Source of the DNA: a virus
Lineage: Duplodnaviria > Heunggongvirae > Uroviricota > Caudoviricetes
Direction: 5' to 3' (one strand)
Virus record (IMG/VR): IMGVR_UViG_2706794693_000003
Length of the DNA stretch: 4,785 nucleotides
Below, one piece after another: positions 1-4,785 of this stretch. The notes below the pieces were generated by a model, which worked only from the letters and a program-made list of their open reading frames with translations, was not told the DNA's origin and made no database searches. How positions within the stretch are numbered: the first letter of the stretch is position 1; each line of letters starts with the position of its first letter. A program made the position numbers and the translations under genes.

Positions 1-11
1 GTCCAATGTGC

Positions 12-48
12 ATAAAAAAATCCGGAAACAAGTGAGCGTTTCCGGATT
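12..48 (-). terminator. Predicted rho-independent terminator downstream of the portal gene
   Basis: Perfect 11-bp inverted repeat (plus 19-29 AATCCGGAAAC and 38-48 GTTTCCGGATT) with an 8-nt loop. On the minus-strand transcript the stem is followed directly by a U-run (plus-strand A-run 14-20). It lies about 35 nt 3' of the portal stop codon (81-83). Stem has 5 GC pairs of 11, so moderate stability. Confidence 0.6.
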
Positions 49-80
49 CTTACACAGCCACTGGATCGGTCAACTGATCC

Positions 81-1237
81 TTAACTGATCGGCATTACAC
101 CACCGGGACGCGGATTCATATCTTCCAGGTCGCGGCAGTCATTGGAAGAGTAAATTCCCCAGTTGATCCCGGTGGCGTAGGCTTCAAAACGGGACTTCAT
201 ATCCCCGCGCAGTAACGCCCCGGCGTTAAATTTGGCGTAATAAACGCCCTGCTTACTTTTTCGTACCAGTCCGGTGTTGATCCGCTGTTCGATGCGGGTC
301 AGATACGGCACCAGTGAATAGTTGATAAATCCCAGCCCCAGCTCTTCGATATTGTTGAAGGTGGCGCGATCGGTGTTCTGCACCATGTGCAACGGCACCC
401 GGAACAGACGACAGATTTCTTCCAGCTGAAACTTGCGGGTTTCCAGGAACTGACTGTCCTCGGCGTTCAGCGCCATCGACTTCCAGTCCAGCCCCATTTC
501 CAGAATCATCGGGCGGTGAGCATTGCCAAGCCCCGTGTGACACTCCTCAAAATCTTTCTTCAGACGCTCGTAAGCATCCGGCGTGAGCTTTTGTTCCGTA
601 CGCAACACACCGGATGTCACCGCACCATTACTAAACAACCTGGCACCGTGCTCCTCGGTTGCCGCTGCCAGTGAAATGGCCTCACGCGCATACGCAATGG
701 GATTCAGCCCGACAAGTCCATCCAGCGTCAGGGTGCGCACATGCCAGATTTCATTCTGGGTCAACACATCCACGGAACCATCCGGAAACGTCACCTGATA
801 AACCGGCTGCCACTGGCTGTTCAGCTTCGGTTCCACACAGCCCGGATCTATCGGAAGAAGCTCCACCACTTCTCCCAGTGCCTTTACCTTGTAGGCGTAA
901 AAATTCCCCCGTAGACACAGGCAGACAATAACCAGCTCCCAGAATTCCTGCGGTGTCATGTAGCCATTAGGTTTTGCCGAAACCAACTTATGCAGTCGTT
1001 CATCCACCGCCCGTGTTTTCAGGGTACCGCTGATTTTGTAGAGACTGCAGGGCAGCATACCAACAGACTCTGCCAGCACCCTGACGCAAGAATAGACCGC
1101 CGTCAGGCGCATGGCCCGCTGGCTACTGATCCGCTTTCCGGTATAGGTGTCGTATGACAGCCCGATAGCATCAGCAGTTCTGCTGGCGTGGTCACCGGCA
1201 CATCGCTTTTTCGTTGAAATAATCCCGAAAAGAACAC
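81..1237 (-). CDS. Phage portal protein, HK97 family; N-terminal region apparently frameshifted (possible pseudogene or sequencing error)
   Basis: Long minus-strand frame ending at TAA 81-83. Translation from about residue 58 of the track ORF onward (GLSYDTYTGKRISSQRAMRLTAVYSCVRVLAESVG...) looks like an HK97-type portal, and it sits directly after the large terminase. The track ORF 81..1328 starts at a TTG and its first ~28 codons overlap the small membrane gene out of frame, giving an implausible peptide. A GTG at 1235-1237, 6 nt after GGAGG (1244-1248), opens a different frame reading [24 protein letters not shown]..., which fits typical portal N-termini, but that frame stops at 1103-1105. 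Details are in the findings. Confidence 0.8.
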
Positions 1238-1419
1238 TATTTACCTCCGCCGACAGACTGCCGTGTACGGTCGAGATATCGCGCCACCAGCCACGACCAG
1301 AACAGGCACAGCGCCCCGGCAACAACAAAACCCGCCGGGGGATAAATCAGCCAGGCACCATACGCCAGCAAAAGCGCACCCAGCACGCCCACCAGAGGCG
1401 CGAGAATCAGCATGATCAT
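1237..1419 (-). CDS. Small hypothetical membrane protein (60 aa, two predicted transmembrane helices), between large terminase and portal
   Basis: ATG at 1417-1419 preceded by GAGGT with 5-nt spacing, starting 11 nt after the terminase stop. Product [60 protein letters not shown] has two hydrophobic stretches and a charged C-tail. Codons are E. coli-typical (many CTG, GCG, GTG). Its TAG stop (1237-1239) overlaps the candidate portal GTG start by 1 nt. From memory, a 60-aa gene (ymfR) sits in the same position in the K-12 e14 prophage; sequence identity was not verified. Confidence 0.65.
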
Positions 1420-1430
1420 AATTACCTCAG

Positions 1431-3164
1431 TTAAAGCGAGCGGATCCCGTAGGACTCAATGTGGTCAGACAGCGTGTCTTCTTTCTCGTACAGCATGGCT
1501 CTGCCAACCGCCATAATCAGCGCAACTGCACCATCGATTTTGTTTTCCGCCTGCTCTTTGACGGGTTTCACCACATCATCGTTACCCGGCATGTTTTTGC
1601 CGACCACGTTGCCGATACACCAGGTCATGATGGGATTGCCGTCATGATGAAAACGTCCCGATTCAATCGCTGCTTCCAGCTCTTTCATCGGATCGGACAT
1701 ATTGGTGAAGTTCTGGACGATAGTGACGGGATTCAGGTCTTCATCAGCAAGGTCATGTGACAACCCGGTCGCCCCGAAGGGGTCGATGGGTGACTCACTG
1801 ACCGGGCTGATTTTGTTCGCCGCTTTGGCCTCCTCGAGGATGTAGCGATAATCCACCTCCGCACCATCGGTAACGGTCAGAACGCCCATTTCCACCCATT
1901 TCTGAAAGCGTTCGGCTGTCCGTCGATCTTCATTTTTCTCGACGCTGTACACCGTGTCATACGGTACCCAGAAACGCGGGGCCACACTGTAGTAATGCGT
2001 TTTACCGTCAATCTCGCGGGTATAAAGTCGCGCCATGCTGTTCATATCCAGCTTACGCGCCAGGTCAAAGGCCAGAATGCACGGCTGCCCCTCGAACTGC
2101 TCAAGGGTCAGTGATTTATCCTCGCAGCTCTGCCAGCTCACCAAGTTGAAATACGCCGAACGCGCCGACACCCAGATATTGAGGTGTTTTGTTTTAAAGA
2201 CGTTTGCCAGACGGGCGTTATTTTTCGCACGCTGCTGCTGACTTAACAAAAATTCGCGATAAACCGACACGCCAATATTTGGATTGGCTTTTTCCAGCAC
2301 CTGCGGGCCGGTCCAGTCGTCACCTTCATCAACGGTATAGATGATCCCGAACAGTTCATCGTTAGGCACCGAGCCGTTGAGCATCTCGATGACTTCCCGC
2401 CGCTTGTCGTAGCACGGCCCCTCAATGTTGTACCCGGCGGTGGTGATGGCCCACATCAGTGGCTGACGTCGCGCCCCCATCCCGGTAAGCATTGTGGTAT
2501 AAAGCGCATCGGTGGCATGCTCGTGATATTCATCAACCACGGCACAGTGGGGTGATGAACCATCACCTGGGTTGCCGATCAGCGGTTCAAACCGCGCGCC
2601 ATCCTCCGGACGGTTCATGTTTGAGGCGTTAACCTCAATCCCGAACGCTTCCGTCAGCATGGGTGTGCGTTTACACATCAGTCGCGCCGGGCGAAAGACT
2701 TCCCACGCCTGTTTCTCTGTCGTGGCACCGGAATACACTTCCGCGCCAAACTCGTTATCACAGGCAAAACAATACAGGGCAACACCGGCAGAGATTGCTG
2801 ATTTGCCGTTCTTACGGGGGATTTCGGTGTACACCTCCCGGAAGCGGCGCAACCGGGTGCCTTTATTGACCCAGCCAAACGCACAGCAGATCACAAATAG
2901 CTGCCACGGCTCCAGCGTGATGGGCATCCGTTTGAATGCCCACTCCCCCTTGGTGTGCGGCAACAGCTGAATAAATTTCGCGGCCCGTTCAGCCAGGTCC
3001 TTGTCGAAGCGGTAACGAAACGACTTACTTTTTTCCGCCATCAGGTCATCAAGATGGCGCTGGCAGGCCTGAATCACAAACTGGCAGGCAACAATCTTTC
3101 CGCGCACGACATCCCGGGCATACTGATTTGCAGCATTTACGTTGGGGTAAGATTTCCGGCTCAT
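1431..3164 (-). CDS. Phage terminase large subunit (Terminase_1 / HK97-like), 577 aa
   Basis: Uninterrupted 577-codon ORF. Walker A-like motif [10 protein letters not shown], Walker B-like CAVVDEYHE, and a C-terminal nuclease-like region with conserved acidic residues ([19 protein letters not shown]...). The ATG at 3162-3164 overlaps the upstream terS stop (ATGA), indicating translational coupling. Confidence 0.93.
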
Positions 3165-3513
3165 GATTCGATAATTTTCAGAAACGGGTTAGTGGCTTTC
3201 TTCTGCCCCGCCAGGCCAATCAGACGCTGGCGGCTGCTGGGGTCGAGTCCGAGCATTGCCCCCGTGCTGCTCATCTCGGACTCCTGTTCTTTTTTGGCGG
3301 TCAGCTCCGGATTTTTGACCCTGCCGCCCATTGCACCGGTGATGGTGTTGCCCTGTATGGCAATATTTTTCACGGCACGTCGCCAGAACTCATAGGCCAC
3401 GCACCACCGCTCAAGTACCGCCAGGTCAGTCACGCACAGCAGGCCCTGACCGCAGAGTTCTTTGGTTGTCAGTTGCCACATGATCGTGGCGAGAGGGAGA
3501 TCTTCTTCAGCGA
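3161..3513 (-). CDS. Phage terminase small subunit, P27 family; visible C-terminal 116 aa only, N-terminus lies in the N-run
   Basis: Readable translation ...[116 protein letters not shown] resembles P27-family small terminases (recalled from memory). TGA stop at 3161-3163 overlaps the terL ATG. The true start is masked; estimated total length about 150-180 aa (inference). Confidence 0.75.
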
Positions 3514-3765
3514 NNNNNNNNNNNNNNNNNNNNNNNNNNNNNNNNNNNNNNNNNNNNNNNNNNNNNNNNNNNNNNNNNNNNNNNNNNNNNNNNNNNNNNN
3601 NNNNNNNNNNNNNNNNNNNNNNNNNNNNNNNNNNNNNNNNNNNNNNNNNNNNNNNNNNNNNNNNNNNNNNNNNNNNNNNNNNNNNNNNNNNNNNNNNNNN
3701 NNNNNNNNNNNNNNNNNNNNNNNNNNNNNNNNNNNNNNNNNNNNNNNNNNNNNNNNNNNNNNNNN
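3514..3765. other. Run of 252 N (masked sequence or assembly gap)
   Basis: Direct observation: positions 3514-3765 are all n. The 280-aa track ORF 3161..4003 reads through it as X residues and is therefore an artefactual fusion of two genes. Confidence 0.99.
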
Positions 3766-3766
3766 T

Positions 3767-4003
3767 TTTCGCCTCGCTCACCACACCGACACGCAGACAC
3801 AACTGACACAGACCTTTATCGCGCTTCAGAATACGGGCACGAATCACCGTCCATTTTGAGCCATAGCCACGCTGGTGGCGGCTCAGTCCGCGCTGGTGCT
3901 GCACCCAGCCTTCACCGCGATGTTTATCGCAGTAACCCGAACTGTCTGTGGTTGTACCTGCACATCCACGCTTACGGCAGGCACGTGGGATTAGTGATGG
4001 CAT
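3767..4003 (-). CDS. HNH endonuclease, packaging-associated (HK97 gp74-like); visible N-terminal 79 aa only, C-terminus lies in the N-run
   Basis: ATG at 4001-4003 preceded by GAGGT about 6 nt upstream. Translation MPSLIPRACRKRGCAGTTTDSSGYCDKHRGEGWVQHQRGLSRHQRGYGSKWTVIRARILKRDKGLCQLCLRVGVVSEAK... has the Cys-rich zinc-binding N-terminus and basic region typical of phage HNH endonucleases found just upstream of cos and terS. The catalytic HNH motif would fall in the masked part. Confidence 0.8.
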
Positions 4004-4045: not shown

Positions 4046-4510
4046 CTACTTAATGCACTGAGTGCGGATATACTCCTGTGCCCCTTCCAGTTGCATCTGC
4101 ATCGTCATCAGCCGCTCTCTGAGGGTGAAATAATCCCGTTCAGCGGTGTCTGCCAGTCGGGGGCTGGTTGCATTATCCACGCCGGAGGCGGTGGTGGCTT
4201 CACGCACTGACTGACAGACTGCTTTGATGTGCAACCGACGACGACCAGCGGCAACATCAGCGCGCAGAGTTTCATTTTCAGCTTTCGCATCAGCTAACTC
4301 CTTCGTGTATTTAGCATCGAGTGCATTAACATCACGCTGTCTCTGCTGCATGTCAGTAATGGTTGCGTTCGCCAGCTTCAGTTCTCTTGCGTTTTTGTCG
4401 CGCTGCTCTTTGTAGGTAATGGCGTTATCACGGTAATGATTAACAGCCCATGACAGGCAGACGATGATGCAGATAACCAGAGCGGAGATAATCGCGGTGA
4501 CTCTGCTCAT
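4046..4510 (-). CDS. Rz: Rz i-spanin (inner-membrane spanin), about 154 aa
   Basis: Translation [154 protein letters not shown] is near-identical in pattern to lambda Rz as I recall it (N-terminal TM helix, coiled-coil periplasmic domain). I place the start at ATG 4508-4510, which overlaps the endolysin TGA stop (ATGA), rather than the GTG at 4520-4522 used by the ORF track. Confidence 0.9.
4108..4290 (-). CDS. Rz1: Rz1 o-spanin (outer-membrane lipoprotein), 60 aa, fully embedded in Rz in another frame
   Basis: ATG 4288-4290 preceded by AGGAG (4298-4302) with 7-nt spacing. Product [60 protein letters not shown] has a signal peptide with lipobox VVGC (Cys20) and a penta-proline stretch, as in lambda Rz1. 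Tandem TGA TGA stops. Confidence 0.88.
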
Positions 4511-4785
4511 TGCTGCCCCCACAAACAGACTTCACGCTCAATCTCACGACGGGTCATCAGCCCTTTCCATTGCTTACCGCCAGCATATGTCCAGCGACAT
4601 AGCTGGTCACATGCGCCTTTGATATAGCCCTGGTTTATTTTGCGAAGAAGCGTCGATGTTCTGAAATTGCCAGCGCCCACGTTGTAAACGAACGAGTAAA
4701 GAGCGCCGCGCGTTGTTTCCGGTATATCGACTTTGATGTACGGGTTAATTTGTCTGGCGACAGTGGCAAGGTCTTTATTCAGGAG
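4507..4785 (-). CDS. Phage endolysin (T4-lysozyme-like GH24 lysozyme, R21/RrrD-like); C-terminal 92 codons only, 5' end beyond the window
   Basis: Minus-strand translation of 4510-4785: [92 protein letters not shown]. This matches my recollection of the C-terminus of lambdoid R-type lysozymes of E. coli prophages. The frame is open to the window edge. The position directly upstream of Rz/Rz1 is the canonical lysis-cassette order. Confidence 0.85.

Follow-up and report, generated by a model that had tools for sequence, protein, structure and literature searches.

A run of N in a Shigella sonnei prophage remnant very probably stands in for an HNH-cos-terS junction of the SfI/SfV type

A run of N that interrupts a 4785-nt piece of tailed-phage DNA (hereafter the window, meaning the whole stretch that was analysed) can be read with high confidence as a placeholder gap over the HNH-cos-terS junction of an SfI/SfV-type lambdoid prophage remnant in Shigella sonnei, judging by genomes that share its flanks. 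It most likely arose in a draft short-read assembly as a scaffold gap whose size was estimated, and the true sequence beneath it is almost certainly the 376 nt that genomes with identical flanks carry at this place. The 280-aa open reading frame that spans the run is an artefact that arises when N is translated as X and the length of the gap happens to put the genes on its two sides in frame.

Results

All genes of the window are on the minus strand and would be transcribed in the order lysozyme, Rz/Rz1, HNH, N-run, terS, TerL, a 60-aa protein and portal. The lysozyme gene (PF00959) is represented by its C-terminal part, which runs off the window (4507..4785, minus strand, coordinates mapped from relatives). 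It is followed by an Rz-type spanin/lysis protein of 154 aa (PF03245; 4046..4510, minus strand), recognised from its ORF and the relatives' annotation, and the ORF list places an Rz1-like ORF of 60 aa within Rz in another frame (4108..4290, minus strand). With Rz and its presumed Rz1 partner forming a spanin pair just upstream of HNH, this part of the window looks like an ordinary lambdoid lysis cassette. On the other side of the run, beyond terS, TerL, the large terminase subunit of 577 aa (1431..3164, minus strand), carries both the PF03354 ATPase and the PF20441 nuclease domain. A small hydrophobic protein of 60 aa, identified from its ORF and from relatives, lies between TerL and portal (1237..1419, minus strand), and its positional counterpart in the E. 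coli relative L002 is annotated as YmfR.

The portal gene (PF04860) occupies about 98..1325 on the minus strand within an ORF at 81..1328; its start codon is provisional, and its last few codons are replaced by IS4. The equivalent gene in the S. sonnei locus L010 is called as a protein of 414 aa, also with PF04860. Abutting the 3' end of portal, positions 1..97 (no strand assigned) correspond to the end of an IS4-family insertion sequence with a terminal inverted repeat (the reverse complement of TAATGCCGATCAGTTAAGGATCAGTTGACC). Indeed, similarity to E. coli prophages starts only at window position 98-100, and in the identical S. sonnei genomes the sequence beyond window positions 1-97 runs into a gene with the PF13006 (Nterm_IS4) and PF01609 (DDE_Tnp_1) domains. 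In S. sonnei, the IS4 at the portal 3' end has an IS3-type element behind it, and raiA/pheL/pheA come next (positions 7067-9700 in L004-L010). Since insertion sequences and chromosomal genes come directly after portal, the head and tail genes are missing and the prophage is a remnant; given this loss, the S. sonnei cos is probably a relic.

The run itself comprises exactly 252 N at positions 3514-3765 (no strand assigned) and is the sole N-run in the window. Just as the original prediction had placed it, it lies between two readable gene parts, the C-terminal 117 codons of terS, a small terminase gene of the P27 family (3161..3513, minus strand), and the N-terminal 79 codons of the gene for a 116-aa HNH endonuclease (3766..4003, minus strand). 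A minus-strand ORF of 280 aa (3161..4003) crosses the run as 84 X residues.

Relatives covering the same stretch were found by using the window's exact TerL protein, which is present in thousands of assemblies, for a look-up that led to Shigella sonnei genomes (Ss046, CP000038, and others), and pattern scans of IMG/VR for the two flanks 362-390 nt apart contributed six further loci on viral contigs. Sixteen loci were of the S. sonnei type (L004-L013 and L016-L021) and matched the flanks at 99.8-100%. In the S. sonnei genomes, the 3513 nt of the terS side are 100% identical to the window, and the 1020 nt of the HNH side are 99.8-100% identical. Eighteen loci match both flanks, and in every one of them the equivalent of the N-run is 375-380 nt long and free of N. 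Of the 16 S. sonnei-type loci, whose flanks are identical next to the run, 15 have the same 376-nt sequence, and the sixteenth has a one-A difference within an A-run. One of these loci, L018, is an IMG/VR contig of 4970 nt that shows zero mismatches over 4479 readable bases of the window (1020 + 3459 nt) and has the same 376 nt at its positions 1136-1511. Ten assemblies with identical TerL share the order lysozyme, Rz, HNH (116 aa), 121 nt, terS (164 aa) and TerL. Against complete E. coli genomes, the best megablast match of the whole window reached 94% identity overall. A 38-mer next to the N-run had no match in the genome contig collection, and the ORF with its X residues has no database entry, so that L018 serves as the best proxy for the source.

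The window has T at positions 4599 and 4626 in the lysozyme gene, and the loci that were checked individually, complete S. sonnei genomes included, have G and C. Among the fetched loci, a 47-mer with both T alleles occurs only in L018. The two alleles may be strain SNPs, or they may stem from consensus bleed-through from a paralogous prophage lysozyme.

In the relatives with identical flanks, the 376 nt begin with the final 110 nt of HNH and its TGA, continue with an intergenic region of 121 nt that holds cos, and end with the initial 142 nt of terS. The N-run is thus 124 nt shorter than what it stands for, a point on which the original prediction was silent although the run is too short for the content that it had predicted. 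Were its length faithful, 252 nt could not hold this content and would leave no room for cos; the length is most likely unfaithful. The hidden HNH codons (110 nt) and the hidden terS codons (142 nt) add up to exactly 252 nt, which is why the two genes look fused in frame, and the 280 aa of the ORF are the sum of 116 and 164. In the relatives, the distance from the HNH start to the terS start is 472 nt (3n+1), so the frames differ, and TGA and the 121 nt separate the genes. The view that the fusion ORF is false and the shared frame a coincidence therefore holds: it is the gap length alone that fuses the genes. An in-frame relation as such has a chance of 1 in 3, and the N-run is no statistical feature. 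If gap sizes were random, 252 would exactly equal 110 + 142 in roughly 1 of 100 cases, and this coincidence counts against reading the run as a gap.

Searched alone, the readable 79-aa fragment of the HNH protein had no match in Pfam or NCBIfam, because the HNH domain spans residues 66-112 and is mostly beneath the N-run. Its identity accordingly comes from full-length genes and not from a profile: its DNA matches the opening 238 nt of genes for 116-aa PF01844 proteins with 100% identity. These full-length proteins match PF01844 over residues 66-112 with an E-value of 1.6e-16 and 60.6 bits (cut-off 21.4), and they have H83, N97, C102-C105 and H106 in the arrangement DH83...N97...CxxCH106. The original prediction placed the catalytic motif and the stop codon of HNH in the hidden stretch, and this is where the relatives have them, with a 110-nt stretch for TVDHIIPKAHGGTDADSNLQSLCWPCHKAKTARERIR, which supplies the His-Asn-His residues and the second CxxC, and a TGA directly after it. 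In the window's readable part, only C66-C69 is visible of the CxxC pairs of the HNH domain; the readable zinc-ribbon motifs are CxxxxC (C9-C14) and CxxH (C25-H28). Group 1 HNH nicking endonucleases combine an N-terminal zinc ribbon with a C-terminal HNH domain, and their genes lie beside cos and the terminase genes (Xu and Gupta 2013, PMC3592412), a common location for HNH genes (PMC3592412). The protein has this Group 1 zinc-ribbon architecture of Xu and Gupta and is a putative nickase.

The small terminase belongs to the P27 family (TIGR01558 / PF05119), with scores above the curated cut-offs. The readable terS fragment matches PF05119 (Terminase_4) with an E-value of 1.4e-20 and 73.9 bits (cut-off 24.7), and as a 116-aa fragment it reaches 72 bits (cut-off 45.6) with NCBIfam TIGR01558 (sm_term_P27). 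The full terS of the identical relatives measures 495 nt (164 aa), and the readable part of the window's gene is 100% identical to that of L004-L021. The hidden part corresponds to 47 residues, and here too the relatives supply what had been foreseen, a start codon and the N-terminus of terS: an AGGAG ribosome-binding site precedes the ATG and the first 142 nt of the gene (MAGTAGRSGRRPKPTARKALAGNPGKRALNKDEPVFTPIKGVEPPEW), and the encoded N-terminus is basic (MAGTAGRSGRRPKPTARK...). In a few database proteins (P0006, P0074, P0105, P0113 and P0120), Terminase_4 is combined with a TerL, tail-sheath, portal or lysozyme domain, and in none of them with HNH; such chimeric proteins are probably products of frameshifts, rearrangements or assembly chimeras.

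That the hidden stretch would contain cos was likewise borne out in the relatives. Their 121-nt intergenic region has a single copy of the 10-mer TGCCCGCCCC, which lies 61 nt past the HNH stop, with 50 nt left to the ATG of terS; L018 has this 10-mer, and so do 15 further loci with identical flanks beside the N-run. End-sequencing of SfI virion DNA identified a 10-nt cohesive end, 5'-TGCCCGCCCC-3', one base off that of SfV (Sun et al., PMC3636060), and the cos of SfIV was described as identical to the cos of SfI, SfII and SfV (PMC3851460). The region also has an 8-bp perfect inverted repeat, GGGGCGGG ... CCCGCCCC, with its arms 33 nt apart, and the cos 10-mer coincides with the right arm. A scan of the intergenic region for terminase-binding direct repeats gave just weak two-copy matches. 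The fold of the cos-region DNA was not significant (z = -0.73), and the region had no terminator-like site. Neither of the two outcomes that would have spoken against the predicted junction, a continuous coding frame or unrelated cargo genes, was seen in the relatives.

Two types of cos/terS module occur behind the same HNH gene (L002 3277-3390, L033 about 9190-9400, L003/L025 and others). Type A reads ...GACTGCCCGCCCC and continues into a terS that begins MAGTAG..., while type B reads ...GACCGCCCGCCAACCC and continues into a terS that begins MSGPPK.... In L002 the left half is of type B and the right half of type A, and L033 is of type A as far as the 10-mer, from where it continues into another terS. 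These mixtures therefore place mosaic joints at or beside the cos cleavage site. A further motif, AGGGAGGGGCGGGGCAAATC (L004 3405-3425), is common to this region and HK97, where it reads AGGGCAGGGGGGGGGATCAAATC (L043, about 40-60 nt before the right end). In both phages it is G-rich and ends in CAAATC, with 34 nt between its end and that of the cohesive stretch, and its score was reached by 1 of 300 shuffles. The motif may be a conserved cos sub-site, for example one that serves termination or the positioning of HNH/TerL.

Discussion

The properties of the run are those of scaffold gaps of estimated size in draft assemblies, which likewise appear as one unbroken N-run amid otherwise perfect sequence and likewise differ in length from the true sequence; the window is also contig-like in the way of such assemblies, with an IS element bounding one side. 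The main competitor is that the length of the run is true and the source has a real deletion of 124 nt, which we regard as highly improbable. In its most exact form, a precise deletion would have removed the HNH stop together with the 121-nt intergenic region, so that cos was lost and a genuine 280-aa HNH-TerS fusion arose; if true, this would mean a single-chain HNH-TerS protein and a cos-less terminase operon, and we consider it the least probable of the readings weighed here. A deletion would account for the run being exactly as long as the hidden codons of HNH and terS taken together, and for an ORF of 116 + 164 residues, and in a remnant prophage under no packaging selection such a loss would be tolerated. 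However, the shortened spacing is found in none of the 18 loci with matching flanks, and flanks 240-264 nt apart gave no pattern match in genome, viral or metagenome collections. There is no microhomology or direct repeat of more than 3 nt at the 124-nt spacing, and L018, which matches the window at the two rare SNPs, has the full 376 nt. As for the fusion protein, a search of the hypothetical sequence against 5.8 billion protein clusters gave a best coverage of 59%, and none of the hits combined PF01844 with PF05119.

It is also conceivable, though we think it slightly less likely again than a deletion of 124 nt, that the run is a deliberate, length-preserving mask over 252 nt of non-canonical sequence such as a rearranged or substituted module. 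Some stretches of one sequence collection are indeed masked as N, but the same stretch is unmasked and N-free in every related locus that was retrieved, and the flanks break off in the middle of genes at points where the relatives continue seamlessly. A substituted module would furthermore have to do with 252 nt, which is too small for extra genes. The reading as a placeholder gap over the 376 nt of the relatives is therefore the one that we retain. Its practical consequence is a caution for annotation: N-runs can make in-frame pseudo-fusion ORFs, the length of an N-run is not to be read as a true length, and gene-calling software that extends genes through N would predict a false HNH-terminase protein of 280 aa.

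In a phage with an intact module of this kind, TerS would bind beside cos, as suggested by HK97 and the SfI/SfV phages. By homology, TerL with the assistance of the HNH protein would then make staggered nicks 10 nt apart and thereby generate the 10-nt cohesive ends, and packaging of the DNA would start from the nicked cos. The HNH-cos-terS junction has already been characterised in SfI/SfV and HK97, and its presence here is nothing new and has little biological weight.

The HK97-type layout that had been assumed for the hidden stretch holds as far as the gene order is concerned, with HNH, cos, terS, terL and portal following one another in both phages; the closest relatives, however, are SfI, SfV, SfII and SfIV. 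The identity to HK97 gp74 is 34% over 70 aa for HNH (E 1.8e-10) and that to gp2 is 26% over 522 aa for TerL (E 8e-31), while BLAST similarity between HK97 gp1 and the P27-family terS was not detectable. In HK97, terS starts at position 50, so that cos lies about 50 nt upstream of terS as it does in the relatives of the window, whereas 319 nt separate the HNH stop from the right end of the record, as opposed to the 61 nt between HNH stop and cos 10-mer in these relatives. HK97 gp74 is a Group 3 protein without a zinc ribbon, in contrast to the N-terminal zinc ribbon (Group 1) of the protein described here (PMC3592412). It stimulates cos cleavage (PMC9410871; PMC11331095), and the binding site of HK97 TerS lies 15-29 bp downstream of the point where cos is cut (PMC11331095; PMC9410871). 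The features by which Kala et al. (2014) recognise an HNH-dependent HK97-like packaging module, an HNH gene adjoining the terminase genes and a TerL and portal of HK97 type, are all present, the portal being of PF04860, and in an intact E. coli relative an HK97-family prohead protease comes next. By homology, the module is predicted to work like the HNH-assisted cos system of HK97.

The likeness to the Shigella flexneri serotype-converting phages SfI, SfV, SfII and SfIV is far closer, with terS/TerL DNA 97-99% identical over the readable 514 nt. HNH is likewise the last gene before cos in SfI/SfV-type phages, and the cohesive 10-mer of SfI (TGCCCGCCCC) is the same as in the relatives of the window. 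The circular junction of SfIV lines up with the S. sonnei region at every base; between GGGGCGGG and the terS ATG, a stretch that includes TGCCCGCCCC, the two sequences are the same or almost the same. The likeness does not extend to all of the neighbouring genes, as the HNH allele of SfIV is unlike the window-type HNH, with only about 80% identity over 117 nt, and the lysis cassette of SfI/SfV-type phages is unlike that of the window. These phages are moreover viable, whereas the element in the window is a truncated prophage remnant flanked by IS4. Taken by its 97-99% DNA identity on the terS side and its identical cos, as read from the relatives, the module would nevertheless belong to the packaging cassettes of the SfI/SfV type.
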